Source: an uncultured virus (IMG/VR IMGVR_UViG_3300027734_000054) (taxonomy: Duplodnaviria; Heunggongvirae; Uroviricota; Caudoviricetes). Taken from it: 64,000 nucleotides of DNA. Under the pieces are notes generated by a model. That model was not told the DNA's origin. It made no database searches and was given only the letters and a program-made list of their open reading frames with translations. Shown here piece after piece: positions 2,776-58,870 of this stretch (its first letter is position 1; every line of letters starts with the position of its first letter). A program made the position numbers and the translations under genes. The DNA lies in IMG/VR virus record IMGVR_UViG_3300027734_000054. One strand, 5' to 3'.

Positions 2776-5301
<2,526 letters not shown>

Positions 5302-8303: not shown

Positions 8304-9251
8304 TCATTTATTAAACATCTGCTGTAATTCGAAAATCAAAGCCAAAAGACTGACTATAGGATCGATTACTTGACTTCTTTGAGATTGATACTTAGCAACA
8401 GTAATTATAGTTACTGGGATAAGATTTAATTTAGATGGATTTTTTTCTTCCAACCATTTAATAAAGTCAGAACTCAAAGAAGCCATAACTTCATCCACTC
8501 TTCCTGAATATTGTCCAACAATATATTGGTAATTACTAATACTGTCAGGTTTAGAAAGAATCATACTGAAAATAGACTCGTGGTCGAAAGTTATTTCGTT
8601 GATTTTACTTTCAGTTAGATCTGTTACCCCATCAATCTGCCATCTTTGAATTGTATTCAATGCAGATCTCATATCTGGGAAATATTTCTTAGAAAAAAGA
8701 TCTAAGCTTTTTTCATCATGATTTATTTCCATTAACGAAAGTATTTTAGAAACCCTTTCCTGCCATTCAATCTTTATTTCGTTTTCCTCTTCTTTATTTA
8801 CAGGATCAAAGTCATACACCTCGAATCTAGATTTAATAGCATCTGGGATCTTGCTTAAATAGTTGCACGTGGCAACAAATCTTGTTGTCTTAGCATATTT
8901 CTCAATTGTGCCTCTTAAAGCCTTGTAGAACTGCTCTGATGCACCATCAAACTCATCTAGTACAACAATCTTAATGTGATTTTCTCCATCAAGAATAGAA
9001 ACTGTAGAACAGAAGTCGTGTACTTTAGTTCTGATTGTCTCAACCGAGCTCTCGTCAGATACGTTTATAAAAATATATGGGTGATTCTTTATTAGAATTT
9101 TAGCCATACTGGTCTTACCTGATCCAGGGGATCCTGAAAGTAAGACATTTTGTTGTAATCCATTTTCGAAAGATCCCTTGATCCTTTGTGGAAGGATCAT
9201 ATGTTTTAATTCCTTTGGCCTTAATTTTTCTGTTAATAATTCTTGTATCAT
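8304..9251 (-). CDS. Clamp loader large subunit (gp44/RFC-like AAA+)
   Basis: EKLRP, GSPGSGKT, LDEFD, SRF and DMR motifs. Confidence 0.92.
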   Translation of the reverse strand: MIQELLTEKLRPKELKHMILPQRIKGSFENGLQQNVLLSGSPGSGKTSMAKILIKNHPYIFINVSDESSVETIRTKVHDFCSTVSILDGENHIKIVVLDEFDGASEQFYKALRGTIEKYAKTTRFVATCNYLSKIPDAIKSRFEVYDFDPVNKEEENEIKIEWQERVSKILSLMEINHDEKSLDLFSKKYFPDMRSALNTIQRWQIDGVTDLTESKINEITFDHESIFSMILSKPDSISNYQYIVGQYSGRVDEVMASLSSDFIKWLEEKNPSKLNLIPVTIITVAKYQSQRSQVIDPIVSLLALIFELQQMFNK

Positions 9252-27758: not shown

Positions 27759-30700
27759 TTAACTAAATTGGATAAATCCTCCAGAAGCAATACCACCTGT
27801 TCTAGTAACGGTCATTCTATTAATAAACTTATGAATTCCTCTTGCAGGCTCGATAATAACGTCGATGATACCGATATTTTGATCGATGATTGCAGGAGTA
27901 TTGTTCGAAGAGTCCATAATAGTTAAGTAGTTATAAATACCTCCTACTGATCTTACTCCAGTTAAGTAGTTGTCTACTAAAGTTTTAATCTCAAGTCTTA
28001 CTGAATCTTCGTTGAAATCGAAAACGTAGTTTGCTAAGATCTCTTCAATTGCAGATTCTACTGTGATTAATAAATCTCTAACGTGTAAGTTATTAAATGC
28101 TGAGTTAGTTCTTTGGTAGCTTGTTTGGTTACCGTAGATAACTACACCAACTCCTCTTTTACGGATGATTGGGTTGATACCAAATGGCTCTAAGTATTCT
28201 CTATCTTGAAGATCGAAGTCATACTCAAGTCCAACTAAGTTACCAGCTGAAATAATACCTCTTTTAACACCTGCTACGATTGAATAAGGTTCACCTGTGA
28301 TAAACTTACGGATGAAGTTATTAGATACGTATGGTGCTGGTGGAACGTTTAAGTTTTTACCGTTATCTCTAATCGTTAAGAACGGAGAGAAGAATCCAGA
28401 GAATTTAGCTCCTTGATCTTCGTCAGGAAGAGAGAATGTGAATGAAGGATTTAAACTTAAATTACCTCCGTCTGCGATATATCTAGCTTGTAAAATTGGT
28501 GCTGGATCTGTTGCAGTAGGTGCAGAAGTAAATCTAGGATCTTGTGATTCTGAGAATTTCTGCATTGAGGGTACGTTACAGATTGCCATACATTTTTGTC
28601 TGTTCTTAGCAAGTCTTGTAAGTTGGTATTTACAGTTTGGTTGAATACCTCCGTCAAATGTATCTACCACATATCTGAATGTAATAACGTCAGTGTCTGC
28701 AAGAGTTCTAGCTAAGTTAGTATTGTAAAGTACATCTAAAATAGCATTCATTCTTACATCTGTTCCATTTGGAACTGAAGCTGCTTTAATAGCTGCTCCT
28801 GGTAGATACGTAAAGTTGAATGATGTAACAAACTCTTGTACAGATTTGAACTTCCATACTCTTGTGGTTGTACCAGGATAAAGCTGAATAGGTCTTTCTG
28901 TCTTAACTTGGATTGTATAAACTCCAGGTGAAGAAGCAGAAGCTACAGTTTTAACTTCAAGTACTCTTGTTAGTCTAGACTGTAAATTTTCAGTTAACGG
29001 ATTATCATAAGTCTGAGTGTCAGTAGAAACTAATAGATCTCCTACTTTAATACCCGATGAATTAGCCTCAGCAACTGTCATTTCAATAATGTTAGGTGCT
29101 AACTGAGTAATAATATCAACATAATCGCTAAGATTACCGTTAGTTGAAACGACATTAAAGCTTAAACCTGTTGTTAAGTTTGTACCTATAGGAAGCGAAC
29201 TAACATAAGTTGTGTTCCAAGTTGCAATAACTTCTGGTGTTGTAAATGTATCATCAGCATACGCTCTGCATACTAGGATATTAAATCCGTCTCTATCAAC
29301 GTTATTTTCAAACTTAAGATATTGAAGAAGTGATCCTGTATCATCTTTCCAATCAATATCACCATCGCTGATATTACCTTTTACCCAGTCTCTGTACATT
29401 GCGGAGTTTTCGTAAGCTAAATAGCTATCAGTTCCTATTGGAATATCAGGTGAGAAGAAAACGTCATCATTATCAAAGTAGTCAGGACTACCAATTTGGT
29501 AAGCATCTAATGTACTTTTGTTTGTTTCGTACCAAGGCTCAACGTATGTTATAGATGCAGTAGAACCAACAAGAGGATGTGATAATCTTAATCTTATTTG
29601 TGTTCTTTGTCCTACAGGTAATGTTGAATTAGTTATTGTTTTAGCTTCTACTACTTTTAATTTAACAAGATCTCCAGCATAGAATCCTAAATATCCAGGA
29701 GTTGGTAGGTTAGATGTAACTTTACCAAGTACCCATCTAGCTCCAGGAGCATCATTATCAGTAGTAACAAATGAGCTTAATGTAGTAATCTGAGCGTCAT
29801 GATTTACAGAGTTAGTAAATAATGTATCGATATAAATAGCTCCGCCATCTCTATTAGAAGCATTGTAAGTGTCCCATAGAGTTGTAGGTATACCAGCATC
29901 TCCAGTAGCATTAAATAATGTATCTTCTGCTAAAGTTCCTGTTTCTGGTAAGATATCAAATCCAGTAGAAGGAGAAACTCCAGTATCTGTAATCTCTGTA
30001 CCTCCAGTAGATCCTGCAATGTTCTTATAATATGTGAAATCTGCAAATAGATTTTGGCTATACGATAAGAAATTAAGATTCTTAGGATTTGTTGTGATAT
30101 CTGCATCCGGTCCAATCTCGTCAACTAAGTGGTGACCAACTAAGTCAATTACTGAAGAGTTGTTTTCTAAATCATCTAAAGCTTCTTCGTTAACTGCACA
30201 GAAGATACCAGTTGTTTGAGCTTGGTTATTAATCAATGTCTGAATGTATCTAAGAGTACCGTTTTGATCTACGAAGTTAGGAATAAGTGTACCAGTTACT
30301 GTTGTAACGATATTAATTCCGTCTTGTGCTAAGAAGTTATCAATTTGTGCCTTAATGAATCCTTTTGAAGTGAAATATGCACTGTAAACTGGGTCATTTG
30401 CTAAAGCTTGGTAATCTGTCCAGTTACCGCTAATTGCAATTACATCAATAAACCAATCAGAAAGATAATCGTACTGATTCATGAAAGAAGGCACGTTATC
30501 TGCTCCAAAATATTCTCTAGCAGTAATATCGAATCCTTTTAAAGGGAAAGGTGAGTCAAGAGATTTTCTAACAATAACACTTACAGGATTTTGTCCTATA
30601 TTAACTAAGCTAAATAGCTTTCTAGAATCTGGTTTTGATCCTGATGTATCTTCAGTTGCTAAGAAATAATTAGTATCAGGGAACCAGAATTTCTCCTTGT

Positions 30701-31160
30701 TGTAATAAGAAGATACTAATTTGTCTTGTTTTGTTAATGGATCTGAATATCCTCCTGTTGCATTATTACCATTTTGCTCTTCCGTATCAACAGATAATGC
30801 ACGATATCTAGCAACATCAGCACCAGCAGCAAAATCAGGATCTCCGTTTACATCTACTGTATTATTAAGTATTCTAAGATTTAATGCAAATACAGGTCCA
30901 CTTCCTAAACATGTTAGTACAGATCTATGGAAAAAAGATCCTTTTTTCTCTAGGGCTTTATCAATTCCTCCAAAAACTGCTTGAAAAGTTGTGATGTCCG
31001 GGCAGTATACTGGAGTATTAAAAGGTCCAATATTAGAATAACCAACAACCAAACGAATTGTTTGTGGATTGATTATAATATTTTCCGAAGCATCAAACTC
31101 CAAAGTGTAAACACCAGATGCTTTGAATTGTGATAAGTCAAGTTTAACTTGTTTGGCCAT
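27759..31160 (-). CDS. Tail sheath protein (gp18-like)
   Basis: SGVYTLEFD N-terminus. C-terminal AGVKRG, INPI, GNQT, LHVRDLLI, NNTPAIID. Confidence 0.93.
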   Translation of the reverse strand: MAKQVKLDLSQFKASGVYTLEFDASENIIINPQTIRLVVGYSNIGPFNTPVYCPDITTFQAVFGGIDKALEKKGSFFHRSVLTCLGSGPVFALNLRILNNTVDVNGDPDFAAGADVARYRALSVDTEEQNGNNATGGYSDPLTKQDKLVSSYYNKEKFWFPDTNYFLATEDTSGSKPDSRKLFSLVNIGQNPVSVIVRKSLDSPFPLKGFDITAREYFGADNVPSFMNQYDYLSDWFIDVIAISGNWTDYQALANDPVYSAYFTSKGFIKAQIDNFLAQDGINIVTTVTGTLIPNFVDQNGTLRYIQTLINNQAQTTGIFCAVNEEALDDLENNSSVIDLVGHHLVDEIGPDADITTNPKNLNFLSYSQNLFADFTYYKNIAGSTGGTEITDTGVSPSTGFDILPETGTLAEDTLFNATGDAGIPTTLWDTYNASNRDGGAIYIDTLFTNSVNHDAQITTLSSFVTTDNDAPGARWVLGKVTSNLPTPGYLGFYAGDLVKLKVVEAKTITNSTLPVGQRTQIRLRLSHPLVGSTASITYVEPWYETNKSTLDAYQIGSPDYFDNDDVFFSPDIPIGTDSYLAYENSAMYRDWVKGNISDGDIDWKDDTGSLLQYLKFENNVDRDGFNILVCRAYADDTFTTPEVIATWNTTYVSSLPIGTNLTTGLSFNVVSTNGNLSDYVDIITQLAPNIIEMTVAEANSSGIKVGDLLVSTDTQTYDNPLTENLQSRLTRVLEVKTVASASSPGVYTIQVKTERPIQLYPGTTTRVWKFKSVQEFVTSFNFTYLPGAAIKAASVPNGTDVRMNAILDVLYNTNLARTLADTDVITFRYVVDTFDGGIQPNCKYQLTRLAKNRQKCMAICNVPSMQKFSESQDPRFTSAPTATDPAPILQARYIADGGNLSLNPSFTFSLPDEDQGAKFSGFFSPFLTIRDNGKNLNVPPAPYVSNNFIRKFITGEPYSIVAGVKRGIISAGNLVGLEYDFDLQDREYLEPFGINPIIRKRGVGVVIYGNQTSYQRTNSAFNNLHVRDLLITVESAIEEILANYVFDFNEDSVRLEIKTLVDNYLTGVRSVGGIYNYLTIMDSSNNTPAIIDQNIGIIDVIIEPARGIHKFINRMTVTRTGGIASGGFIQFS

Positions 31161-47058: not shown

Positions 47059-47871
47059 TTAGTTGTCGTTTTGCTTAAATTTTTCTGTCTCCTGTTGGTC
47101 TTGTAGTTGTGCTTGTGATTGCTGGCTAAGAACTGGATCTTCTATACTAGTAAGAAGTTCTCTGTAATATTCAAGTGGTTTTTTATTTTCATATTCCCCC
47201 GGCTCAGCTATAGCTCCCGTAAAATTACCTAGTAGATGATTATTTGAATCATCATGTTCTCCTTCATTCCCGAAAATCTGATCTATGTACTCGTAGTAAT
47301 CCTTTTTAGTCTTACCCCCACCAGAAGGGAACGATTTAAACATCTGATTATTTTTCTCTACTATATAATCTGGAAATTCCCATTCCCAATCTTTTTTTAT
47401 TACTGCAGGATAGAAAGTAATTGCTGCAAAATCGCCAGCTACTATTGGTTTTTTTAACTTCATTCTCTGAAACCAAGTCTTGTAGAAAGACCTGATAAGA
47501 TCAAGTTGATCAATATTGGACATTTGTAAAACGTCGTTAGGAGTTAATGTTTTTCCACTCTCTGTATCTATGAATTTTTCTATAACTAAAGGCATAAATG
47601 ATAGAAGTCCTACTGCTCCTGACATTCTGTCATTTTTCTTAGAATCAAATCTACTCTCGTGAAAAATAGTGTGCATAAGCCATAATGGATCAATTCCTAA
47701 ATCGTCTGATATCCTGACTATTTTTTTAAGAAATGCTTGTCTATTTTCTTCTATTAGTTTTGGATAAGGTAAAGCAGTAACAGTCTCGTCTTGATAAGAT
47801 TCAGGATCTACTTTATCTATTCTTATAGATTCGTTTAAAAAGTTTTTGAAGTCTCTTAGATGTTTTAGCAT
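47059..47871 (-). CDS. Lytic transglycosylase-like virion protein
   Basis: LGIDP.WLM..I.HES.F and SGAVGL..FMP motifs. Confidence 0.7.
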   Translation of the reverse strand: MLKHLRDFKNFLNESIRIDKVDPESYQDETVTALPYPKLIEENRQAFLKKIVRISDDLGIDPLWLMHTIFHESRFDSKKNDRMSGAVGLLSFMPLVIEKFIDTESGKTLTPNDVLQMSNIDQLDLIRSFYKTWFQRMKLKKPIVAGDFAAITFYPAVIKKDWEWEFPDYIVEKNNQMFKSFPSGGGKTKKDYYEYIDQIFGNEGEHDDSNNHLLGNFTGAIAEPGEYENKKPLEYYRELLTSIEDPVLSQQSQAQLQDQQETEKFKQNDN

Positions 47872-50391: not shown

Positions 50392-51120
50392 TTATAATTT
50401 ATCTTCTTCGATAATAGAATACCAAAAGATTTGTTGTTTTGAATTTTTTACTAAATTCCAAAATTCGTTCCATTTTTTTTCTGTCGGAATTACTTGACAT
50501 CCAGCAGAATATCCACCAACACAGGGTATACCAGAAGATCCATCTACACCTTTAGGAGATAACCCATAATGAAAATTTGTACCAGTTCCTATATCTTTTT
50601 TTGGTGGATCATATGTTTTTACCACGTTGTCTTTTGCTGAAAATCTATTTACTGGTATTTCCTTTGGAGATAATCCATCAATACTAGGAACCAAAGCAGG
50701 TATTGTTTTATTCGACGATCCAAAAGTGTGAGTTCCGATCTTAAATTTATATTCAGAATCATCCAAAATTGCTACATCGGTATCGAACCAAGCGACAGAA
50801 GGAACTGTGGTGGCTTGGAATGGTGTAATATTAGGATTTTCTTTTTTTGCATTCTTTGGTATAAAATAAATACTGTCAATATATTTTTCTTGACCATTCT
50901 TTCTAGCTTCCAATTTTCTTCTTATTCCTACTATTACTGCATCACCATTATCAATAGATTTTAACGTCTCTTTGTATTTTCCCACTTTAATTAGATCACC
51001 ATGTATTTTTTTAAAAGACACAGGAACCTGTGGAATAACAGGGGATTCTTTGCAATAATTTTTTATGTATTCTTCCCTATTACTCTCGTTAATAAATTCA
51101 GAATATTTTAGGATCATCAT
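50392..51120 (-). CDS. Hypothetical protein with H...SAGCQV motif (possible peptidoglycan peptidase)
   Basis: GTNFH and SAGCQV motifs; N-terminal EFINES. Confidence 0.6.
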   Translation of the reverse strand: MMILKYSEFINESNREEYIKNYCKESPVIPQVPVSFKKIHGDLIKVGKYKETLKSIDNGDAVIVGIRRKLEARKNGQEKYIDSIYFIPKNAKKENPNITPFQATTVPSVAWFDTDVAILDDSEYKFKIGTHTFGSSNKTIPALVPSIDGLSPKEIPVNRFSAKDNVVKTYDPPKKDIGTGTNFHYGLSPKGVDGSSGIPCVGGYSAGCQVIPTEKKWNEFWNLVKNSKQQIFWYSIIEEDKL

Positions 51121-51143
51121 GACCTATATATCTTATTTTTTAG

Positions 51144-51216
51144 ATGTCCCGCCAGGGCTCGAACCTGGACTCTTCTGAACCAAAATCAGACGTGTTGCCA
51201 ATTACACCACAGGACA
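51144..51216 (-). tRNA. tRNA-Gln(TTG)
   Basis: Cloverleaf, anticodon arm TCTGA-TTTTGGT-TCAGA. Confidence 0.95.
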
Positions 51217-51222
51217 TTATAG

Positions 51223-51295
51223 AGCCTTTGACAGGGATCGAACCTGCGACATCTTCATTACAAATGAAGCGCTCTACCAGCTGAGCTACAAAGGC
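51223..51295 (-). tRNA. tRNA-Thr(TGT)
   Basis: Cloverleaf, CTTCA-TTTGTAA-TGAAG. Confidence 0.95.
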
Positions 51296-51296
51296 A

Positions 51297-51373
51297 TGGG
51301 GTGACAGAGGAGAATCGAACTCCCGACCTTCTGAACCACAATCAGACGCTCTAACCAACTGAGCTACCGTCAC
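51297..51373 (-). tRNA. tRNA-His(GTG)
   Basis: Cloverleaf, TCTGA-TTGTGGT-TCAGA, C73, encoded CCA, no encoded G-1. Confidence 0.95.
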
Positions 51374-51375
51374 AG

Positions 51376-51448
51376 TAGCGAGTGGCAGGTTCGAACTGCC
51401 GACCTTCGGGGTATGATTCCGACGCTCTACCAACTGAGCTAACTCGCC
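51376..51448 (-). tRNA. tRNA-Met(CAT), probably elongator
   Basis: Cloverleaf, TCGGA-ATCATAC-CCCGA. Lacks the initiator 1:72 mismatch and the GGG/CCC anticodon stem. Confidence 0.85.
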
Positions 51449-51457
51449 ATATAAAAG

Positions 51458-51531
51458 TGGAGGATAACGGATTCGAACCGTTGACCCCTTGCGTGCAAGG
51501 CAAGTGCTCTAGCCAGCTGAGCTAATCCCAC
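51458..51531 (-). tRNA. tRNA-Ala(TGC)
   Basis: Cloverleaf with G3:U70 and a U2.C71 mismatch. Confidence 0.93.
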
Positions 51532-51606
51532 TGGAGCAGGTACCCGGAATCGAACCGAGATCTTCTGATTGGAAGTCAGAAGTAATGACCGTTATACGAT
51601 ACCTGC
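51532..51606 (-). tRNA. tRNA-Gly(TCC)
   Basis: Cloverleaf, TCTGA-CTTCCAA-TCAGA, encoded CCA. Confidence 0.95.
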
Positions 51607-51609
51607 ATT

Positions 51610-51694
51610 TGGTCGGAGCGGAGGGATTCGAACCCCCAATGCCGTAAGGCGGCTGATTTACAGTCAGCTGAGCAACCAATTGCTCAACACTCCG
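51610..51694 (-). tRNA. tRNA-Tyr(GTA) with C1:G72 and long variable arm
   Basis: Acceptor CGGAGTG/CGCTCCG, A73, CCA; anticodon arm GCTGA-CTGTAAA-TCAGC. Confidence 0.95.
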
Positions 51695-51699
51695 AAGTG

Positions 51700-51772
51700 C
51701 GGGGATGATAGGATTCGAACCTATGACCTACTGATTAACAGTCAGTTGCTACTACCGCTGAGCTACATCCCC
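51700..51772 (-). tRNA. tRNA-Asn(GTT)
   Basis: Cloverleaf, ACTGA-CTGTTAA-TCAGT. Confidence 0.95.
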
Positions 51773-51777
51773 AGTTT

Positions 51778-51866
51778 AGATTAGAGAATATTTGAACGGG
51801 GTGGTTTTTTTGGTCAAAAAATTACAAGGTTTTGATCGAAGTAACCCCTTTCACCGCTTCTAATCT
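51778..51866 (-). ncRNA. Y-RNA-like RNA (copy within tRNA operon 1)
   Basis: Terminal stem AGATTAGA/TCTAATCT enclosing GAAGCGG...GTTACTTC...TATTCTC, the same motif as three RNAs upstream of the Ro60 gene. Confidence 0.75.
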
Positions 51867-51868
51867 TG

Positions 51869-51941
51869 TAGTCCCTGAGGGATTCGAACCCCCGACATTT
51901 TGGATGTAAACCAAACGCTCTACCAACTGAGCTAAGAGACT
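51869..51941 (-). tRNA. tRNA-Val(TAC)
   Basis: Cloverleaf, TTTGG-TTTACAT-CCAAA. Confidence 0.95.
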
Positions 51942-51946
51942 AAATG

Positions 51947-52023
51947 TGGTTGACATAGAAGGATTCGAACCTTCGGCCTTTGACGTATCAGATCAACGCT
52001 CTAACCAACTGAGCTATATGTCA
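51947..52023 (-). tRNA. tRNA-Ile(GAT)
   Basis: Cloverleaf, loop CTGATAC, encoded CCA. Confidence 0.93.
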
Positions 52024-52029
52024 ATGTTG

Positions 52030-52115
52030 CGGAAAGAATTGGAATCGAACCAAATACCAATTAAAGTACGCTTCGCTTAGCAGGCGAGCCCCGTCACCAT
52101 CTGAGATTACTTTCC
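52030..52115 (-). tRNA. tRNA-Ser(GCT), atypical acceptor/T/D junction
   Basis: GGAAAG/CTTTCC, G73, loop CTGCTAA, long variable arm, TTGG-TTCGATT-CCAA. Confidence 0.8.
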
Positions 52116-52244
52116 TTTTTTAATTAACCTTCTGATTCTTTTTATCAATCTTTCGGTGTGTTTAAATTTTATTGTTTCTCTTCTTAAGTTTTCTTTACTA
52201 GAGGGGAAACTTCCTCTTGCTACTATTCTGCTTTCTATCGTCAT
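52107..52244 (-). CDS. Possible small basic protein (45 aa)
   Basis: MTIESRIVARG...LIKKGK* fills the gap between tRNAs. Its stop overlaps the 5' end of tRNA-Ser. Confidence 0.35.
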   Translation of the reverse strand: MTIESRIVARGSFPSSKENLRRETIKFKHTERLIKRIRRLIKKGK

Positions 52245-52261
52245 ATTTTTAAATTTTTTTG

Positions 52262-52333
52262 AGGTCGTGACTGGAATCGAACCAGTATAACTAGTTTTGC
52301 AGACTAGTGCCTAAACCACTCGACCACACGACC
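52262..52333 (-). tRNA. tRNA-Cys(GCA)
   Basis: Cloverleaf, CTAGT-CTGCAAA-ACTAG, U73. Confidence 0.95.
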
Positions 52334-52344
52334 TTATTTATTTG

Positions 52345-52417
52345 AGGCTCCACCTGGATTCGAACCAGGATCAGATCATCCGTAGTGATCTATTCTAATC
52401 CATTGAACTATAGAGCC
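52345..52417 (-). tRNA. tRNA-Arg(ACG)
   Basis: Cloverleaf, GATCA-CTACGGA-TGATC. Confidence 0.95.
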
Positions 52418-52425
52418 TTATTTTG

Positions 52426-52498
52426 CACAAAGGGTAGGACTCGAACCTACGACACCCAGTTTTGGAGACTGGTGCTCTACCAACTGAGCTACCGATGT
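52426..52498 (-). tRNA. tRNA-Trp(CCA)
   Basis: Cloverleaf, CCAGT-CTCCAAA-ACTGG, two acceptor-stem mismatches. Confidence 0.9.
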
Positions 52499-52504
52499 GT
52501 ATAG

Positions 52505-52577
52505 TGATCCCGGAGGGGCTCGAACCCTCGACTCCCGCATTAAAAGTGCGGTGCTCTACCAGCTGAGCTACGAGATC
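52505..52577 (-). tRNA. tRNA-Lys(TTT)
   Basis: Cloverleaf, CCGCA-CTTTTAA-TGCGG. Confidence 0.95.
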
Positions 52578-52648
52578 ATTGTTACTAAACTTGTTTTTGT
52601 AATACTAAACATGATTAGTTTAGTGAGACAATTTCTTGTTTAGTATTG

Positions 52649-52721
52649 TGGTACCGGCCGGAATCGAACCGGCGACACCTAGATTTTCAGTCTAGTGCTC
52701 TACCAACTGAGCTACGGTACC
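52649..52721 (-). tRNA. tRNA-Phe(GAA)
   Basis: Cloverleaf, CTAGA-CTGAAAA-TCTAG. Confidence 0.95.
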
Positions 52722-52735
52722 ATTTTTTTCCAGTA

Positions 52736-52747
52736 TGTCAAAGAACA
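52736..52747 (-). promoter_or_regulatory. boxA antitermination element, operon 1
   Basis: TGTTCTTTGACA, resembling rrn boxA, between the terminator and the first tRNA. Confidence 0.75.
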
Positions 52748-52781
52748 AAAAAAAAGGCTTTGATGTGAATCAAAGCCTTTT
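52747..52781 (-). terminator. Attenuator terminator, operon 1
   Basis: AAAAGGCTTTGAT-TCAC-ATCAAAGCC followed by T9. Confidence 0.9.
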
Positions 52782-52809
52782 CCGAAATATCTAAATATGA
52801 TTTTCTGTA

Positions 52810-52917
52810 TTAGCTTCGATCGGGTTCTTTCCCCTTTGCCCAAAACGCCACCGTTTGATAGCAGCCATTAATCTGACTGATCATGCGATTGATGTTATGT
52901 TTACTACAGTTTTTCAT
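52810..52917 (-). CDS. Leader peptide 1 (35 aa, MKNCSKHNINRMISQINGCYQTVAFWAKGKEPDRS)
   Basis: ATG just downstream of GATATATA. Codons 1-30 use only, and all of, the 16 amino acids of the downstream tRNAs. The 3' end can pair with the terminator 5' arm. Confidence 0.85.
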   Translation of the reverse strand: MKNCSKHNINRMISQINGCYQTVAFWAKGKEPDRS

Positions 52918-52998
52918 TTTTCTTTATTATATATCCTGTTTCCAGAATAGTTTCGTAAAAGTACAATATCTTTTTTAAATAAAAAAATGTTTTTCAAA

Positions 52999-53568
52999 TT
53001 ATTTCAAAAATTTTAAAACTTTTTCTTTTATTCCTGATTGCTTAATCCCTTGCATAATGCTAGGAGTGTGTACAAAGTTTGTTAATCCCCATCCAGTACC
53101 GCTTCTATTATTAGATACTTCTTTAAAGCTCATATCTAAATCATCTATTGCTACCCAATGAGTAACTCCGGAATGGGCCTTTAACCATTCTTGGATTTCT
53201 AAAGTTCTTGATGCTTCTAAATCCCAGTCTGGATGCCATTCTTGGTTTTCTGTGTAAGGATATTCTCTTGGTGTGAAATCTATAGGTTTTTTAATTATTC
53301 CTTGTTGTTCATAGTATTCTCCCATTTCCTCTATTGTTGCCCAGACCTTCCAATCTGAAGAAACAACTATTTCAGCTCCAGTCTCTTCTAGAATTAAATT
53401 TAAAACCTTTATTGCTTTCTTGTCGAAGTTATCAAATCTAGCTCCTACATGAAAACTCATTACATCCTGCGAAAGCTTTTTTCTAGCTTTAGCCTGCTTT
53501 TTGTAACGTCCTCCAAATTGTTGGGAAAGACAAATTACTCCATCATGATCTAAAAATATAATTTTCAT
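52999..53568 (-). CDS. HAD-family phosphatase (Swiss-Army-Knife RNA repair-like HAD domain)
   Basis: IIFLDHDGV, IVVSSDW, R..EI..WL and VAIDD motifs. True ATG at 53568, just after tRNA-Leu. Confidence 0.8.
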   Translation of the reverse strand: MKIIFLDHDGVICLSQQFGGRYKKQAKARKKLSQDVMSFHVGARFDNFDKKAIKVLNLILEETGAEIVVSSDWKVWATIEEMGEYYEQQGIIKKPIDFTPREYPYTENQEWHPDWDLEASRTLEIQEWLKAHSGVTHWVAIDDLDMSFKEVSNNRSGTGWGLTNFVHTPSIMQGIKQSGIKEKVLKFLK

Positions 53569-53570
53569 AG

Positions 53571-53649
53571 TACCCAGGGAGGGACTCGAACCCTCACGCT
53601 TTCGCACTAGATCCTAAATCTAGCGTGTATACCATTTCACCACCTGGGC
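53571..53649 (-). tRNA. tRNA-Leu(TAG)
   Basis: Cloverleaf, CTAGA-TTTAGGA-TCTAG, variable arm. Confidence 0.95.
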
Positions 53650-53653
53650 TTAG

Positions 53654-53726
<73 letters not shown>

Positions 53727-53731
53727 ATATA

Positions 53732-53806
53732 TGGCGGTCCCGCGGAGAATCGAACTCCGAACTCTGCCGTGACAGGGCAGCATTATAGCCGTTTAACTAC
53801 GGGACC
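53732..53806 (-). tRNA. tRNA-Asp(GTC)
   Basis: Cloverleaf, CTGCC-CTGTCAC-GGCAG, G73, CCA. Confidence 0.95.
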
Positions 53807-53817
53807 TTAATTTTTTG

Positions 53818-53889
53818 TACTGCCACGGAGAATCGAACTCCGATTTTATGGATGAAAACCATAGGTCCTAACCGTTAGACGATGGCAGC
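53818..53889 (-). tRNA. tRNA-Glu(TTC)
   Basis: Cloverleaf, TATGG-TTTTCAT-CCATA. Confidence 0.95.
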
Positions 53890-53893
53890 GTAA

Positions 53894-53905
53894 TTTCAAA
53901 GAACA
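53894..53905 (-). promoter_or_regulatory. boxA antitermination element, operon 2
   Basis: TGTTCTTTGAAA. Confidence 0.75.
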
Positions 53906-53913
53906 TATAAAAC

Positions 53914-53942
53914 AAAAAAACCTCTGAGGTTATCAGAGGTTT
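53914..53942 (-). terminator. Attenuator terminator, operon 2
   Basis: AAACCTCTGA-TAACC-TCAGAGG followed by T7. Confidence 0.9.
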
Positions 53943-53963
53943 AAATTATATCGTTATATAAAT

Positions 53964-54053
53964 TTATTTCCTCTGACACTTAATTGTATCCTCTAGAAGG
54001 TCATCTTCTTTATGAAGTTGAAAATCTATTGCGATATTTAAAAAGTGTTTCAT
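53964..54053 (-). CDS. Leader peptide 2 (29 aa, MKHFLNIAIDFQLHKEDDLLEDTIKCQRK)
   Basis: Run GAA GAT GAC CTT CTA GAG GAT matches the downstream Glu/Asp/Leu(TAG) tRNAs. TGTCAGAGG can pair with the terminator 5' arm. Confidence 0.85.
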   Translation of the reverse strand: MKHFLNIAIDFQLHKEDDLLEDTIKCQRK

Positions 54054-54192
54054 TGAAAGCTTTGTTCTTTTTTTATTATATACCTCAAAAGTACAAAAAA
54101 GTTTCTATTAAAAAAAATAAAAATGTGAAATCATCTGGAATTATCTATATTTCTGATCTATATTTGAATCTGTAACAATAATACAATGATCT

Positions 54193-54705
54193 ATGAAAAA
54201 TCTAAAATTAGCATTTATTTTCCTATTCATACTAGGAACAAGTGTAACCGCTTTATCGCAGAATGAAGGCATAGAATCTTTCAACAACACAATGGCTGGA
54301 GCTAGCAAATTGAGAGGCGATGCTTACTATCCATTTTACGATCAACCGGAACTAAGAGGTAAATTCTTAAGCGTAGTAGGGAATCCTAAGCTATGGAAAA
54401 AATTTATTACTAAGAAGGATGAAAGCTATATTGGAGTTTTTGCTCCCGGTGTGGAATGGGATCTTTATACAGAAGACGATATGCTATATGAGCCAATTAT
54501 GATAAAGAGCACAGTAGATTCATATTACGATAGTTTCCTTAAACAGGTAAGATACGACAGATATGAATATGAGGTTCAAACTCAGGACGATGGAACTGTC
54601 CAAGAGATTTATACTCTATTCAAAGATGGCGTATTCTATAGAGAATATATGGTTGGATGGCATTATAACAAGATATGCTCCATATCTGAATATAAAGAGC
54701 AATAA
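54193..54705 (+). CDS. Hypothetical exported protein
   Basis: N-terminal signal peptide MKNLKLAFIFLFILGTSVTALS-Q. Confidence 0.75.
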   Translation: MKNLKLAFIFLFILGTSVTALSQNEGIESFNNTMAGASKLRGDAYYPFYDQPELRGKFLSVVGNPKLWKKFITKKDESYIGVFAPGVEWDLYTEDDMLYEPIMIKSTVDSYYDSFLKQVRYDRYEYEVQTQDDGTVQEIYTLFKDGVFYREYMVGWHYNKICSISEYKEQ

Positions 54706-54733
54706 AAAAAGCCAGCTATATAGCTGGCTTTTT
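54704..54733. terminator. Bidirectional intrinsic terminator
   Basis: A7-GCCAGCTA-TA-TAGCTGGC-T5 between convergent genes. Confidence 0.85.
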
Positions 54734-54752
54734 AGTTTAATGTTTCACACCC

Positions 54753-55448
54753 TTATGCTTTTTTAGGGGAAAGAGCAGCATAACTTTTTGGAAATTCTTC
54801 TACGAATGATTTCATTCCTGGATCTTGTTTAGTTCCGCTATCACCAAACTGTTTGGCCATTTTAGGAATGAATCCTTTTATTGTAATTTCTTTACTGATC
54901 TTCTTCGCGAATTTTTTAAATGTATCAGTTACCGTAGTATTATAAGTAGGAGACAATAGAAGAGTAGTTATAACTTTTGCTAGATTTGTGCCTGCAGTAG
55001 AATCGATGCAAATACCGGATCTTTCCATAAAATTTGCAAGTAGATCTATAGAATTTGAAGCATTATATAATTGACCGCTGGATTTATCTGCGTCAAAATC
55101 TTCCATTTTAGTAATTGCTGCAGGATACCTATCATCCCCATCGACTCTTTCATATATGTAAGCGTATGATTTTCCCTGCTTTAATTCAGGGGGAGTCTTC
55201 TTATCAGCATAATTAGAGGAAGGAAAGTAAATTGATACACTTTTAGGACTTTCACCACCTTTACTAAAGCCAATAATTGTGTCATTACTATTTGTATCAA
55301 CCGTCATTATATTAGCTTTCATGTTACCTAGCTTATCAGATCTATCGGTACCCAAATTATAAGGTACACCTGGTACGATATCGGATTCGTTAATAGGATT
55401 GTAATATTGATTTTCTAGAATAAAATCGTTGAATCTTTTAATTTTCAT
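54753..55448 (-). CDS. Hypothetical protein with capsid-targeting-like N-terminus
   Basis: MKIKRFNDFILEN. Confidence 0.7.
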   Translation of the reverse strand: MKIKRFNDFILENQYYNPINESDIVPGVPYNLGTDRSDKLGNMKANIMTVDTNSNDTIIGFSKGGESPKSVSIYFPSSNYADKKTPPELKQGKSYAYIYERVDGDDRYPAAITKMEDFDADKSSGQLYNASNSIDLLANFMERSGICIDSTAGTNLAKVITTLLLSPTYNTTVTDTFKKFAKKISKEITIKGFIPKMAKQFGDSGTKQDPGMKSFVEEFPKSYAALSPKKA

Positions 55449-55466
55449 TTTTTTATATTTAATTTT

Positions 55467-55745
55467 TTACATGCTCCAAGCTGGATTAGCTACAATTAAC
55501 ATATCTCCTTCTACTCTTGGTATTTGTTTAGTTGAATAAGCATCATCATATTGAATTTGCTCTGGATAAAATTTTTGTCCCTGGAACATGATATAGTTTT
55601 CTTCGTCCTTACCCCTGTGGCTCCATCCTTGACCTCTAAGAGAATCGTGAGCAGCATCGTCAACTGTGGGTTTTCCGAAAAGTGAATCCCAAAATCCTTC
55701 GTTAATTTTGGAATTGTTATCTTGATATTTTTTAAGGTGTTTCAT
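55467..55745 (-). CDS. Hypothetical protein with capsid-targeting-like N-terminus
   Basis: MKHLKKY...INEG, preceded by GATATATA. Confidence 0.7.
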   Translation of the reverse strand: MKHLKKYQDNNSKINEGFWDSLFGKPTVDDAAHDSLRGQGWSHRGKDEENYIMFQGQKFYPEQIQYDDAYSTKQIPRVEGDMLIVANPAWSM

Positions 55746-55779
55746 TTCTTTTTTTTATTTAATCTATATATCTAATATT

Positions 55780-56622
55780 TTATCCACTATAAGGCATTCC
55801 TTCTCCATCTTCAATAGTGATCTCAGAATACATACCAGTTACTATATTAATTAGCTTGTTAATAGTGTCTAATCTTTTATATTCAACATCTAAATTTAAT
55901 TTTTCAGCATGAGATAATCCTGGTAGTAATGTCCCTTCTTGAAACTCAAGTAAGCGTGTAATTACTTGTGAAAATGAAGCAGGCTCATATACAGCACTTA
56001 TTGGTAATTCTAAGTCTGTAGTACTGGCTAATAATTCAGAATCGTATCTTTTTTTAATCAAAAGATAGCTCTCCTCAGCTGTTTTTAAAGTTGAACGAAG
56101 TTGTACAAAGTCAACGATATTATTTCCCGCCGACTCCAGATATATGTCGTCATTGTATTCTGAGTAATTGATTGAATCAAATTGTAAATATTTAGAAACA
56201 GTCCATTCAACTAATATATTATCTGAAGTAATTGAAGAAGCATATATTTCACTTTTTGGTACTTCGATAACAATTTTAAGTGCTATTGTATACTTTTGAT
56301 AATAGTTTTGGTAGAATCTATATGCTTCAGTAGAAAGAAAAGTTTTATCTAAGTTAATAACAGCTTGTCCTTGTTCATTTACCCTTGAGGACTGTTTTGA
56401 TAAATAATCAGTTGAATCTATTATACTAGGTGTTTTAGAATTAAGTACTGGTTCCGCTTCATTTAAACCACTCCTAGATAATAAAGCTACCAACCCAACC
56501 ATAACAGTTACACCTGTCTCTGGGTTAGCAGGTTGTGTGGTAGTGCTACCGTATTCATCAGTTACATCAATTACAAAATTAATTAATAACTCATTGTATT
56601 CATTTAATTTATACTCTTCCAT
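55780..56622 (-). CDS. Hypothetical protein
   Basis: 280-aa ORF. Confidence 0.7.
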   Translation of the reverse strand: MEEYKLNEYNELLINFVIDVTDEYGSTTTQPANPETGVTVMVGLVALLSRSGLNEAEPVLNSKTPSIIDSTDYLSKQSSRVNEQGQAVINLDKTFLSTEAYRFYQNYYQKYTIALKIVIEVPKSEIYASSITSDNILVEWTVSKYLQFDSINYSEYNDDIYLESAGNNIVDFVQLRSTLKTAEESYLLIKKRYDSELLASTTDLELPISAVYEPASFSQVITRLLEFQEGTLLPGLSHAEKLNLDVEYKRLDTINKLINIVTGMYSEITIEDGEGMPYSG

Positions 56623-56725
56623 TATTTTATTAAGTTATAATACTCCTTAAAGTGATCTATTCTATCAGGTACCCCAATAATATCTTCCAAGGTTTTTTAT
56701 CCATTCTATATATCTAATTATCCAA

Positions 56726-57577
56726 TTAGAATCCATTAGTTGATGTATTATAGAAAACCAATCCAGTTACATTAGTCGTTTTAGTAATAGTAGGAGTTGA
56801 GTAATTAAATGTCATTACGTCACCACCACTCAACTCTCCAAATTGTATTCTTATAGGATAATAAACACCCGAAGTTAAAGCGATTGTCCCAGATTTTTCG
56901 ATTGTACCGTGTAATCCACCGTTATTAACTGTTGAGTTTGTTGTAGTGAATCCACTAACAGCATTACTACCAACCCAAACATAGGAGGCATCATCAGATG
57001 AAGTAAAGAATGTGTAGGTTTCTGTGGTGGTTGGTTTGAAATATCCTAACCATTGACAACTGAAATTTTCTCCATCATTCTGAGAAGGTTCAAATATAGA
57101 AGTGGTTTGTACTGATGTTGCCGGATTTCCACCTACCGATGCGGGAGTCGCAGTTGCAAAGAAACTAACATTATCAGCAAAATACCCAGAGTAAGTCGTC
57201 TTATATAAACCTGCAAGATATGGATTTCTGTTAGTCCAATAGTTATTTGCTGTTAACCAATCATTAGCTGCTGAAGCAGATGCTTGTGTAGTACCGCTTA
57301 TTATTTGTACTGTAATTCGAAAAGCTTCATCTGTATTAGTACATCCCCAGAATTGTACAGTGCCTATATTACCTACTTGAGTTGGAAAGTTTCCAGAGGG
57401 TACATCTTTAGCTATTATATAAGAATTATCCTCGTCTGGACCCATCCACCAAGTTAATCCCCCGGGTTTTGCACCATAGTTTAAAGCAGATACACCTACA
57501 CATAATGTACCTACGTTTGTAGTTCCTGAAATTGTTGCTTGTGTTGGATTATATGCGAAAGGTCTTGATGTTGGCAT
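56726..57577 (-). CDS. PA14-domain protein (putative virion carbohydrate-binding)
   Basis: NFS.QW.GYF.P...TYTF...SDD.S.VW, G.YYPIRIQFGE..GG. ATG at 57577 follows GATATATA. Confidence 0.8.
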   Translation of the reverse strand: MPTSRPFAYNPTQATISGTTNVGTLCVGVSALNYGAKPGGLTWWMGPDEDNSYIIAKDVPSGNFPTQVGNIGTVQFWGCTNTDEAFRITVQIISGTTQASASAANDWLTANNYWTNRNPYLAGLYKTTYSGYFADNVSFFATATPASVGGNPATSVQTTSIFEPSQNDGENFSCQWLGYFKPTTTETYTFFTSSDDASYVWVGSNAVSGFTTTNSTVNNGGLHGTIEKSGTIALTSGVYYPIRIQFGELSGGDVMTFNYSTPTITKTTNVTGLVFYNTSTNGF

Positions 57578-57599
57578 ATAGTATATATCAACAAAAAAG

Positions 57600-57704
57600 T
57601 ACAAGAGATTGGACTTGCACCAATATGAACTTTCATTCTCGGGTAGATTACCCTAGCGTCTATCTATCGGATCATTGCAATGATCACACTTCCGCCACTC
57701 TTAT
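57600..57704 (-). ncRNA. tRNA-like RNA with D-loop hairpin insertion and no canonical anticodon loop
   Basis: Acceptor ATAAGAG/CTCTTGT-A; TGGCGGAA...AGACGC D arm with an inserted GATCATT/AATGATC hairpin; GGGTA-ATC-TACCC; T arm ATTGG-TGCAAGT-CCAAT. Confidence 0.7.
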
Positions 57705-57709
57705 ATATG

Positions 57710-57793
57710 TACCCGGGACGGGAATCGAACCCGTACAACCAAATGGTTACAGCATTTTAAGTGCTGCGTGACTACCAATTCCACCACCCGGGC
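57710..57793 (-). tRNA. tRNA-Leu(TAA)
   Basis: Cloverleaf, CAGCA-CTTAAAA-TGCTG, variable arm. Confidence 0.95.
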
Positions 57794-57809
57794 GAATGTG
57801 TAATTTTTG

Positions 57810-57883
57810 TGGTCCCTCACGGGCTCGAACCGTGGACCTACTGATTATGAGTCAGTTGCTCTAACCTACTGAGCTAAAGGACC
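57810..57883 (-). tRNA. tRNA-Ile2(CAT), lysidine type reading ATA
   Basis: GGTCCTTTAGCTCAG...GACTCATAATC resembles bacterial Ile2. Separate Met and fMet tRNAs are present elsewhere. Confidence 0.8.
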
Positions 57884-57887
57884 TAAG

Positions 57888-57961
57888 TAGAGACTATGGG
57901 AGTCGAACCCATGACCGCATGCGTATAAGGCATGTGCTCTAACCAATTGAGCTAAGCCTCT
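57888..57961 (-). tRNA. tRNA-Ile(TAT)
   Basis: Cloverleaf, CATGC-CTTATAC-GCATG, A73. Confidence 0.9.
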
Positions 57962-57969
57962 TGGGGCTG

Positions 57970-58042
57970 TCGGGATACCAGGACTCGAACCTGGGGCCTC
58001 CTGGTCCCAAACCAGGCGATCTACCAACTGATCTACATCCCG
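57970..58042 (-). tRNA. tRNA-Pro(TGG)
   Basis: C1:G72, CCTGG-TTTGGGA-CCAGG. Confidence 0.95.
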
Positions 58043-58045
58043 AAA

Positions 58046-58204
58046 TTGTATGTCTTTAAATATCCCCAGAACATACAAACTGTGCTAACCCACGATTTAG
58101 AGAATAAGTGTGCATATCATTAAAGAATACCGAAATATTCTAACTGTCTACGTTGTAGAGGCATATTCTATCTTCGATCCATACCCAGCGCTAGGCAGAG
58201 GGCT
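58046..58204 (-). ncRNA. Unassigned structured RNA within tRNA operon 3
   Basis: Nested helices: AGCCC/GGGTT, TGCCTAG/CTGGGTA, AGAATA/TATTCT, TCTAC/GTAGA, AGAATAT-TTCG-GTATTCT, TTGTATGT/ACATACAA. Confidence 0.55.
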
Positions 58205-58217
58205 TTTTATTTTTTAG

Positions 58218-58289
58218 TACCCCCGGCGGGAATCGAACCCACATTGACGGTTTAGAAAACCGCTGTTCTATCCGTTGAACTACGGAGGC
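58218..58289 (-). tRNA. tRNA-Arg(TCT)
   Basis: Cloverleaf, GCGGT-TTTCTAA-ACCGT. Confidence 0.95.
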
Positions 58290-58292
58290 AAT

Positions 58293-58382
58293 TGGAGGAG
58301 AGTGAGGGATTCGAACCCCCGGTAGCTTTCACTACGTCAGTTTTCAAGACTGGTGCATTAAACCGGGCTCTGCCAACTCTCC
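58293..58382 (-). tRNA. tRNA-Ser(TGA)
   Basis: Cloverleaf, loop CTTGAAA, long variable arm, CCA. Confidence 0.95.
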
Positions 58383-58399
58383 AATTTGATAATCCAACA

Positions 58400-58411
58400 T
58401 GTCAAAGAACA
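58400..58411 (-). promoter_or_regulatory. boxA antitermination element, operon 3
   Basis: TGTTCTTTGACA. Confidence 0.75.
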
Positions 58412-58412
58412 C

Positions 58413-58445
58413 AAAAAAACCGGGACTTTTTGAAGGTCCCGGTTT
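58413..58445 (-). terminator. Attenuator terminator, operon 3
   Basis: AAACCGGGAC-CTTCAAAAA-GTCCCGG followed by T7. Confidence 0.9.
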
Positions 58446-58478
58446 AGTTAATGATTATTTTTTATTAACACAGGACCT

Positions 58479-58538
58479 TTAGGATCGTCTTATCGACGGT
58501 CTTAATATTGAAGGTGATATGTTAAATATTGTTTTCAT
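58479..58538 (-). CDS. Leader peptide 3 (19 aa, MKTIFNISPSILRPSIRRS)
   Basis: Run ATA TCA CCT TCA ATA TTA AGA CCG TCG ATA AGA matches the downstream Ile(ATA)/Ser(TGA)/Pro/Leu(TAA)/Arg(TCT) tRNAs. AAGGTCCTG can pair with the terminator 5' arm. Confidence 0.88.
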   Translation of the reverse strand: MKTIFNISPSILRPSIRRS

Positions 58539-58588
58539 TTGAACTTTATATATCGTATTTGTTGTTTTGTTTCACAAATATAGATATT

Positions 58589-58870
58589 TTATCTTATATA
58601 AAAAAATGATTTTCTGAAATCTTGAAGATTTATTTTTTTAGACTTACCTAAGTAAGAAGCGATATCTTCTGCAGTCTCTTCATCTTCGAGATCACATAGT
58701 ATGTAGAAATCTGCATCATCTCTAAAATCTATTTTAGATTCTGTATAGAAAAATACATCATCAGATTCTTCTCCTTGATTTGGATCTGAAAAATCTGATT
58801 CTAAATATTCGCAGATCTCTTCTTCCTCAAATTTAAATTCTTCGTATCCTGTATAGACTTTAATTGACAT
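58589..58870 (-). CDS. Hypothetical acidic protein
   Basis: 93-aa ORF. Confidence 0.65.
   Translation of the reverse strand: MSIKVYTGYEEFKFEEEEICEYLESDFSDPNQGEESDDVFFYTESKIDFRDDADFYILCDLEDEETAEDIASYLGKSKKINLQDFRKSFFYIR

Follow-up and report, generated by a model that had tools for sequence, protein, structure and literature searches.

In the leader-peptide attenuators of enterobacterial amino-acid operons, thrL (Thr/Ile) and ilvL of ilvGMEDA (Ile/Leu/Val), codons for more than one amino acid in a short translated leader choose between an antiterminator and an intrinsic terminator. In the Escherichia coli trpL leader, which follows a region 2/3/4 logic, region 2 is similar to region 4 and becomes masked when a ribosome stands at the stop codon, and the transcript terminates when the leader is not translated. 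The pheM leader with the pheST attenuator controls phenylalanyl-transfer RNA (tRNA) synthetase, and T-box riboswitches bind one uncharged tRNA directly, with no ribosome required. Here, we describe three putative leader-peptide attenuators that precede the three tRNA blocks of an uncultured virus of the Caudoviricetes (IMG/VR record IMGVR_UViG_3300027734_000054), all of them on the minus strand of a 64,000-nucleotide (nt) stretch of that record, which we refer to as the window. We consider it probable, at roughly 0.8, that each of the three blocks is gated by a ribosome-mediated attenuator that acts as feedback on tRNA supply.

The window leaders resemble thrL and ilvL in that a short leader, once translated, would set the choice between antiterminator and terminator. 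Unlike these, they would regulate tRNAs rather than biosynthetic enzymes, are phage-borne and stand behind a late-type promoter motif, and they sample up to 16 tRNA species with mostly one to three codons each, where thrL and ilvL repeat the codons for one to three amino acids in long runs. The pheST attenuator likewise places leader-peptide attenuation on a gene of the translation apparatus, but its input is a single amino acid and its target a synthetase, not tRNA genes. T-box riboswitches also tie tRNA status to antitermination, but, unlike the arrangement proposed here, they are ribosome-free and recognize a single tRNA. The tRNA arrays of large phages (T4, T5, and the Cellulophaga phages phi4:1 and phi17:2) resemble those of the window in carrying tRNA clusters. 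Leader-peptide attenuation itself is known; what differs is the tRNA targets, the many sampled species, the isoacceptor match and the predicted read-through default. No description of leader-peptide control of tRNA genes was found in the literature searched, with subscription-only papers lying outside that search. None of the Rfam leader families (Thr, Trp, Phe, His, Leu) matched at threshold, with attenuator 1 giving no match and the best score being that of Thr_leader on attenuator 3 (25.7 bits against a gathering score of 55).

The window has a G+C content of 34.5%, and the source record, at 68.7 kb, was judged to be about a quarter complete; close relatives come from freshwater and riverine metagenomes. 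The nearest named relatives are the Cellulophaga phages phi4:1 and phi17:2, and what they have in common with the window is tRNA-Glu only, at 88% identity; a near-identity nucleotide search against named phages returned tRNA-sized matches only, in 13 records, none covering at least 80% of the query. Three tRNA blocks were delineated. Block A (52721..51143) carries Phe, Lys, Trp, Arg-ACG, Cys, a weak Ser-GCT, Ile-GAT, Val, Asn, Tyr, Gly, Ala, Met, His, Thr and Gln, with no terminator-like site on the minus strand inside it. ARAGORN and Rfam delimit block B (53889..53570; Glu, Asp, Met and Leu-TAG) and block C (58382..57709; Ser-TGA, Arg-TCT, Pro, Ile-TAT, Met and Leu-TAA). If wobble is interpreted generously, all 61 codons can be read by the 26 tRNAs of the window, and the only anticodon shared among the blocks is Met-CAT, of which each block holds one copy. 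By eye, the block B copy resembles an initiator tRNA: its 1:72 pair is mismatched and its anticodon stem is GGG/CCC.

The sequence parts expected of an attenuator are present before each block in the same order: a promoter-like motif, an ORF (open reading frame) starting ATG AAA, a hairpin, a T-run, a box with the core GTTCTTTGA, and the first tRNA. In attenuator 1, the motif GGATATATAAT (52926..52936), of the late-type phage promoter kind, lies 9 nt 5′ of the ATG of leader ORF 1 (52917..52810), which has 35 codons and a stop and encodes MKNCSKHNINRMISQINGCYQTVAFWAKGKEPDRS. The strand GATCGAAGCT (52821..52812), a near copy of the terminator 3′ arm, spans the final three codons of the ORF and extends one base into the stop codon; terminator 1 (52783..52747) follows, with a hairpin core at 52780..52753 (predicted folding free energy, ΔG, −14.1 kcal/mol) and 9 T, and then comes the conserved box GTTCTTTGACATACTGGAAA (52727..52746), between the T-run and tRNA-Phe. 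Attenuator 2 comprises the motif GGTATATAA (54076..54084), leader ORF 2 (54053..53964; 29 codons; MKHFLNIAIDFQLHKEDDLLEDTIKCQRK) with its antiterminator strand at 53975..53966, terminator 2 (53911..53942; hairpin 53942..53918, ΔG −12.5, and a T-run), and a box core at 53904..53896. Attenuator 3 comprises the motif GATATATAA (58546..58554), leader ORF 3 (58538..58479; 19 codons; MKTIFNISPSILRPSIRRS), an antiterminator strand just 3′ of the stop (58476..58467), terminator 3 (58411..58445; hairpin 58445..58417, ΔG −15.0, and a T-run), and a box core at 58410..58402. The leaders are 110–180 nt long, the stop codons of leaders 1, 2 and 3 lie 29, 21 and 33 nt from the terminator hairpin, and the terminators sit 28–34 nt 5′ of the first tRNA.

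The promoter-like motif is overrepresented, with GATATATAA occurring 10 times in the window against 2.2 expected and at least 10 occurrences in 0/100 shuffles. The pattern G[GA]TATATAA has 13 sites, 10 of which are located 3–22 nt 5′ of an ATG; behind these ATGs are seven ORFs of 84–1133 amino acids and the three leaders. The genes headed in this way include those for the tail fibre, the tail sheath and a baseplate-hub-like protein of the window (2779-5301, 27762-31160, 47062-47871 and other sites). Judged by sequence and position, G[GA]TATATAA is likely a late promoter with very short 5′ leaders. The motif-to-ATG spacing is short and A-rich in the tRNA leaders as it is in the tail sheath and tail fibre structural genes, and since the same motif and spacing precede structural genes, the leaders look like the heads of late-type transcription units.

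The match between leader codons and downstream tRNAs is most extensive in attenuator 1. The first-pass annotation had proposed that codons 1–30 of this leader encode M, K, N, C, S, H, I, R, Q, G, Y, T, V, A, F and W, the set carried by a downstream 16-tRNA operon. The sequence at 52917..52810 reads exactly as quoted there, no Leu, ATA, TCN or AGR codon occurs anywhere in the ORF, and E, P and D are confined to codons 31–33 (GAA CCC GAT), all as claimed. The operon itself held up in part, with 15 block A tRNAs called at default ARAGORN and Rfam thresholds and the sixteenth, Ser-GCT, being a low-scoring call. Each of codons 2–30 is read by block A tRNAs, and together these codons sample all 16. 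Among 200,000 random 35-codon ORFs built from the codon usage of the phage itself, coverage of 16/16 tRNAs arose with P = 5e-5, a cognate run of at least 29 did not arise (0/200,000; P < 5e-6), and at least 31 cognate codons in 34 arose with P = 1.3e-4; among the real small ATG ORFs of the window that are at least as long as leader 1 (n = 80), leader 1 alone reaches its coverage or its run. Taken alone, the cognate enrichment (31/34; P = 1.8e-4) is modest, since 62.5% of codon usage is already read by block A. A frame control on the identical leader of the relative L007 gave 31/34 cognate codons in frame, 25/34 in the +1 frame and 17/34 in the +2 frame, and the signal therefore lies in coverage and run length. 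Leader 1 also uses synonymous codons that are rarer than those in phage genes (0/20,000 simulations as low), with a G+C content at third codon positions of 0.50 against 0.24. Rare-codon bias was rejected as a general leader trait, being seen in leader 1 only (P = 0.37 and 0.12 for leaders 2 and 3).

The other two leaders follow their own blocks. In leader 3, codons 7–17 (ATA TCA CCT TCA ATA TTA AGA CCG TCG ATA AGA) are all read by block C; cognate codons make up 13/18 of the leader (P = 9e-6), and no random ORF among the 200,000 contained a run as long as its 11 (P < 5e-6). In leader 2, the block B tRNAs read every one of codons 16–22, which encode EDDLLED and spell Leu as CTN, a run of seven with P = 1.4e-4. 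Blocks A, B and C read 31/34, 3/34 and 2/34 codons of leader 1, 16/28, 9/28 and 3/28 of leader 2, and 5/18, 0/18 and 13/18 of leader 3, and the ratio of observed to expected is highest for the cognate block in 3/3 window leaders. The correspondence extends to isoacceptors: leader 1 uses only AGY for Ser, CGN for Arg and ATY for Ile, which are the block A choices, and avoids those of block C, leader 3 uses TCN, AGA (with one CGA), ATA and TTA, and the run in leader 2 uses CTN for Leu.

The isoacceptor pattern bears on the possibility that genuine attenuators respond here to the supply of amino acids or to translation capacity in general, with only an indirect link to tRNAs. A stalled ribosome cannot distinguish a missing tRNA from an uncharged one, and the physical mechanism would be that of the trp- and his-type attenuators. 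The AGY/TCN, CGN/AGR, ATY/ATA and CTN/TTR splits between the leaders, however, mirror the splits of the tRNAs between the blocks; amino-acid starvation is blind to isoacceptors, and extra tRNA would not relieve an amino-acid shortage. We regard this explanation as unlikely.

To query the RNA switch, we folded transcripts cut at the terminator loop, that is, before the terminator 3′ arm exists, with the ribosome represented by an assumed footprint that reaches from −15 to +12 nt relative to the first base of the A site. The first-pass annotation had named GATCGAAGCT as able to pair with the terminator arm GGCTTTGATT; the pairing is possible, and folding arrived at the same partner, with antiterminator 1 as the minimum free energy partner of the terminator 1 5′ arm in the cut transcript (stem-loop ΔG −12.1). 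Folding with the ribosome placed at each codon, which had been suggested as a check, gave a probability of 0.98 that the 5′ arm is paired, falling to 0.4–0.5 once codons 31 to stop are covered. The antiterminator strand is AUCGAAGCU in attenuator 1, running from the last codons into the stop codon, and is a near copy of the terminator 3′ arm; in attenuator 2 it is CAGAGGAAAU, again the last three codons with the first base of the stop, and in attenuator 3 it is GUCCUGUGUU, directly after the stop. Across the three attenuators, the arm is paired with a probability of 0.92–1.0 when the ribosome is absent or upstream and of 0.1–0.5 when it occupies the final codons or the stop. Of 300 dinucleotide shuffles of the sequence 5′ of the arm, 0, 3 and 0 equalled or exceeded the observed drop for attenuators 1, 2 and 3, respectively. 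The cognate runs end at codons 30, 22 and 17, and the antiterminator is last left free by a ribosome stalled at codons 29–30, 22 and 17. Codons 31–33 of leader 1, which are foreign to block A, lie inside the antiterminator strand; RNA pairing would thus constrain them, and a stall there could no longer signal.

These profiles resemble trpL in that a strand similar to the terminator 3′ arm would be hidden by a ribosome at the stop codon. Unlike in trpL, no effective 1:2 hairpin was found upon folding the three window leaders, and an untranslated leader is therefore predicted to read through. The first-pass account of a leader-peptide attenuator thus agrees with the modeled picture in every element that can be queried in silico (motif, leader, terminator with T-run, and antiterminator); the antiterminator strand stands as it was named, and the predicted default without a ribosome is refined from termination to read-through.

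The position of the stop codons also bears on an inverted logic, in which efficient leader translation melts the terminator and good translation switches the tRNAs on in a positive feedback. Ribosomes close behind the polymerase can suppress terminators, as in the pyrBI attenuator, but the stops here lie 29, 21 and 33 nt 5′ of the hairpins, outside the assumed footprint, and a terminating ribosome would cover the antiterminator strand instead; we consider this logic very improbable. A T-box-like riboswitch that binds tRNA directly, with no part for translation, would likewise couple tRNA status to the choice between antiterminator and terminator. One specifier cannot match 4–16 tRNAs, the leaders measure only 110–180 nt and their frame is kept across indels, and a permissive Rfam scan of 50900-58700 gave no match to a T-box or other riboswitch, with no T-box at E ≤ 1. 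A T-box-like element is scarcely credible here.

Taken together, a model for ribosome-mediated attenuation of the tRNA blocks emerges. The late-type phage promoter would start a transcript that opens with a short ORF composed of codons decoded by the block's own tRNAs. By default, the terminator 5′ arm would pair with the upstream copy of the 3′ arm, the antiterminator, and the polymerase would read through into the tRNAs. That copy would be covered only if a ribosome had by then arrived at the leader's end, in which case the terminator would form and the tRNA block would not be made. Slow decoding of any sampled codon, caused by a low level of charged cognate tRNA of host and phage together, would delay the ribosome and let the block be transcribed. 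The outcome would be negative feedback on tRNA supply, separate for three codon sets that jointly cover the code. As termination needs the ribosome to finish the leader in time, the leader would measure the total transit time over the sampled codons. Leader translation, the kinetic switching and the response of read-through to tRNA supply are the steps that we infer.

The same design was observed in the named and cultured Cellulophaga phage phi4:1, which carries three leader-matched tRNA blocks in groupings unlike those of the window. There, the leader MKIQRLHLQELEQPIISGGTGV precedes Pro, Glu, Gln, His, Leu-TAG, Leu-TAA and Arg-ACG, and its 11-codon run QRLHLQELEQP covers all seven tRNAs. A GTG-started leader ending in QLTKTGITVIDKTKGARAYLGDTVIG precedes Ala, Lys, Ile, Gly, Met, Asp, Thr, Val, Arg-TCT and Met, and a leader beginning MKTNYCTYNNSNWSFSY precedes Tyr, Ser-GCT, Asn, Trp, Phe and an annotated pseudo-tRNA that is Cys by eye. 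In the phage record, the block 2 leader is included in the hypothetical protein gp075, read from an upstream TTG, and the other two leaders have no coding-sequence entry. Folding of block 1 gave a trp-like three-state profile. In each block the T-run and the first tRNA are just 9 nt apart, and the phi4:1 tRNAs would thus be reachable only through the terminator.

Between blocks B and A of the window lies a gene for a protein with a HAD 'Swiss Army Knife' domain of the RNA-repair type (52999-53568, minus; PF18143, E = 7.6e-22). Relatives of this HAD_SAK_2 protein were found in 299 stretches, and many of the best 80 loci adjoin tRNA arrays. These 80 IMG/VR loci, the best of the 299 stretches, served as a survey set, in which tRNAs were called with ARAGORN, a hairpin with a T-run was sought within 90 nt 5′ of a tRNA, the longest ATG ORF of 10–70 codons ending within 110 nt upstream was taken as the leader, and the operon was followed up to the next such terminator or a gap of more than 1.5 kb. 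The survey gave 62 candidate terminators, 49 of them strong, and 42 distinct leader/operon combinations, of which 37 had a leader ORF and five had none; in 32 of the 37, the leader samples every tRNA of its own block. A leader was also sought at the Phe block found in L024, L031 and L082 (the same one in each), in L084, and at position 8742 of L013, and these candidates were rejected as the ends of ordinary genes with plain gene terminators.

Conservation of attenuator 1 was followed in seven relatives. Its reading frame is preserved across two 3-nt deletions (L012 and L013), the antiterminator strand is invariant except for one C>T change, and the terminator carries compensatory T>C and A>G changes in L008, L012 and L013 (GGCTTTGAT/ATCAAAGCC versus GGCTTCGAT/ATCGAAGCC). 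Unrelated leaders pair with other tRNA sets. In L071, a leader beginning MNTMNLNTNTLPTTPNGDGGR precedes Pro, Asn, Asp, Gly, Thr, Leu, Arg and Leu, with a cognate run of 17, and a second leader containing EHMSFSTQQSICWYES precedes Glu, Cys, Trp, Tyr, Gln, His, Ser, Ile and Ser. The cognate block is the best one for 8/8 leaders of the window phage, phi4:1 and L071. In a second large clade, the leader MKQNSTHNVSNLPTNVGQSWFTIKGQDCRKFRVLNKM stands before large blocks, and in L026 33/36 codons are cognate and 19/19 tRNAs are sampled. In one relative with a reduced block, L018, the leader departs from the consensus of its own clade at eight residues, and 8/8 of these changes introduce an amino acid that its block serves (W, I, F, G, D or Q); this pattern, noticed post hoc, suggests that the L018 leader actively tracks the content of its block.

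Recurrence and co-variation in other phages were further observed across 20 leader families with less than 50% identity, which include families from a scan with the box 18-mer (see below) and in which a few false leaders and badly delimited hairpins were kept. By codon match, the leader's own operon ranked first in nine families and among the top three in 15, with a mean score reached by 0/20,000 permutations. By pairing between the leader end and the terminator 5′ arm, the cognate combination ranked first in 9/20 families, with a mean excess of −3.7 kcal/mol that was likewise reached in 0/20,000 permutations.

The conserved box lies between terminator and tRNA. The box at terminator 1 is invariant in 7/7 relatives, its core GTTCTTTGA lies 3′ of all three terminators, and the 18-mer GGTTCTTTGACATAYTGG occurs in at least 118 IMG/VR contigs, from which 80 loci (L086-L165) were fetched for neighborhood counts. 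The box ends 5–13 nt 5′ of a tRNA in 42/80 loci and follows a hairpin in 57/80; 23/80 have no hairpin, and 19/80 have no downstream ARAGORN tRNA, some of which then show tRNA-like or folded-looking RNA by eye. As it occurs with tRNA-like genes, sometimes without a terminator, the box marks the 5′ flank of RNA genes, not the attenuator itself. Candidate roles are those of a promoter, a site of processing or a site of recombination. As a general promoter of the phage it was rejected, the exact 9-mer occurring four times in the window (the fourth copy within a gene on the opposite strand) and one-mismatch copies 27 times against 29 expected by chance.

If the box were an independent promoter of the tRNAs, the terminators could be ordinary ones that close tiny late transcripts, and the small ORFs would have no regulatory role. 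The invariance of the box among relatives, its TTGACA, its closeness to the first tRNA in those 42/80 loci and its occurrence without an upstream hairpin in 23/80 are all in keeping with this, as is attenuator 2, where the TTTG of the box lies 7 nt 5′ of the tRNA-Glu 5′ end. This account leaves unexplained the codon-tRNA match, the copy of the 3′ arm at each stop codon and the co-variation in 20 families; moreover, no −10-like element was seen at a fixed distance from TTGACA, and phi4:1, with its 9 nt from T-run to tRNA, has no box. We judge it quite unlikely. A box promoter and an attenuator could also coexist, in which case the attenuator would add regulated late expression above a basal level, and the leaders would still need explaining.

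Several observations weigh against attenuation as feedback on tRNA supply. Some concern the tRNA match. The Ser-GCT gene (~52116..52030, minus) is a sub-threshold call: in Rfam it matches the tRNA-Sec model and no other, with 36.6 bits where the gathering score is 47, and ARAGORN calls it at the relaxed ps80 setting only, with a poor D arm and a T.T mismatch, although its positional counterparts in L012 and L013 are called at default. The overall enrichment of leader 2 is weak (9/28, P = 0.067), and its versions in L012 and L013 have 4/29 cognate codons. Most tRNAs are sampled by one to three codons, perhaps too few for sensitivity. In L031, L073 and L082, the clade leader is retained despite a shrunken block, with 9–11/36 codons cognate; 5/42 terminator-preceded tRNA blocks lack an ATG leader, the tRNA blocks of some relatives follow plain gene terminators with no leader, and the leader of phi4:1 block 2 requires a GTG start. 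A box that acts as an independent promoter, which it could be, would lessen the weight of the switch.

Other such observations concern the RNA. The agreement of the cognate run ends with the codons that leave the antiterminator free depends on the assumed footprint, and folding of phi4:1 block 3 gave no clear structural switch. The terminators are more stable than the antiterminators (−14.1 versus −12.1, −12.5 versus −10.8, and −15.0 versus −7.2 kcal/mol for attenuators 1, 2 and 3), and equilibrium folds of the full leaders contain the terminator in almost every state, with attenuator 2 alone flipping at some ribosome positions. Because the terminators outweigh the antiterminators in stability, antitermination would have to be kinetic. 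Finally, 23 DNA runs and one RNA run matched, the RNA run (X24) with 5% of the sampled words; on the window, the contigs of X24 and the DNA run X4 gave nothing beyond cross-matches to tRNAs and four short RNA contigs within protein-coding regions, and no leader was covered.

A broader proposal, which we consider somewhat more likely than not, is that large Bacteroidota phages carry a closed-loop tRNA homeostat, built of non-overlapping blocks and of transit-time leaders that sample the whole block and co-evolve with it as tRNA genes reshuffle. It might be triggered when host tRNAs are lost, either in the course of infection or to anticodon-nuclease defences. Because cultured phi4:1 carries the design, the homeostat is directly testable; the isoacceptor split between leaders is a built-in and easily tested prediction, and the cultured marine pair of phi4:1 and Cellulophaga baltica makes such a test practical. 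If true, the leaders would provide the first description of tRNA genes placed under feedback control through the speed of decoding. It would extend leader-peptide attenuation from amino-acid synthesis to adaptor supply and raise the number of sensed amino acids from one to three to up to 16, and it would address the open question of why phages carry tRNAs and how the timing of their production is decided. The design would also amount to a natural compact sensor of codon-specific decoding rate. For annotation, it suggests the rule that small 'hypothetical' ORFs in phage tRNA arrays may be leaders.

Further features were noted at and around the tRNA blocks. Within block A, between tRNA-Cys and the weak tRNA-Ser-GCT, lies a 45-codon Arg/Lys-rich ORF beginning MTIESRIVARGS (52107-52244, minus), and the phi4:1 tRNA arrays likewise contain small ORFs. 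Block C is adjoined by a gene for a 292-amino-acid protein with GLEYA and PA14 carbohydrate-binding domains (56726-57604, minus; E = 1.5e-18 and 1.8e-13). A perfect bidirectional terminator lies between convergent genes at 54706-54733; it shows weak Phe_leader and Trp_leader Rfam matches and is unrelated to the attenuators. In the relative L012, ARAGORN calls a tRNA at 8767-8838 (plus) with the anticodon TTA, which would read the stop codon UAA, where L013 has tRNA-Leu-TAA, and just 5′ of it a tRNA-like insert lies between the terminator and the box.

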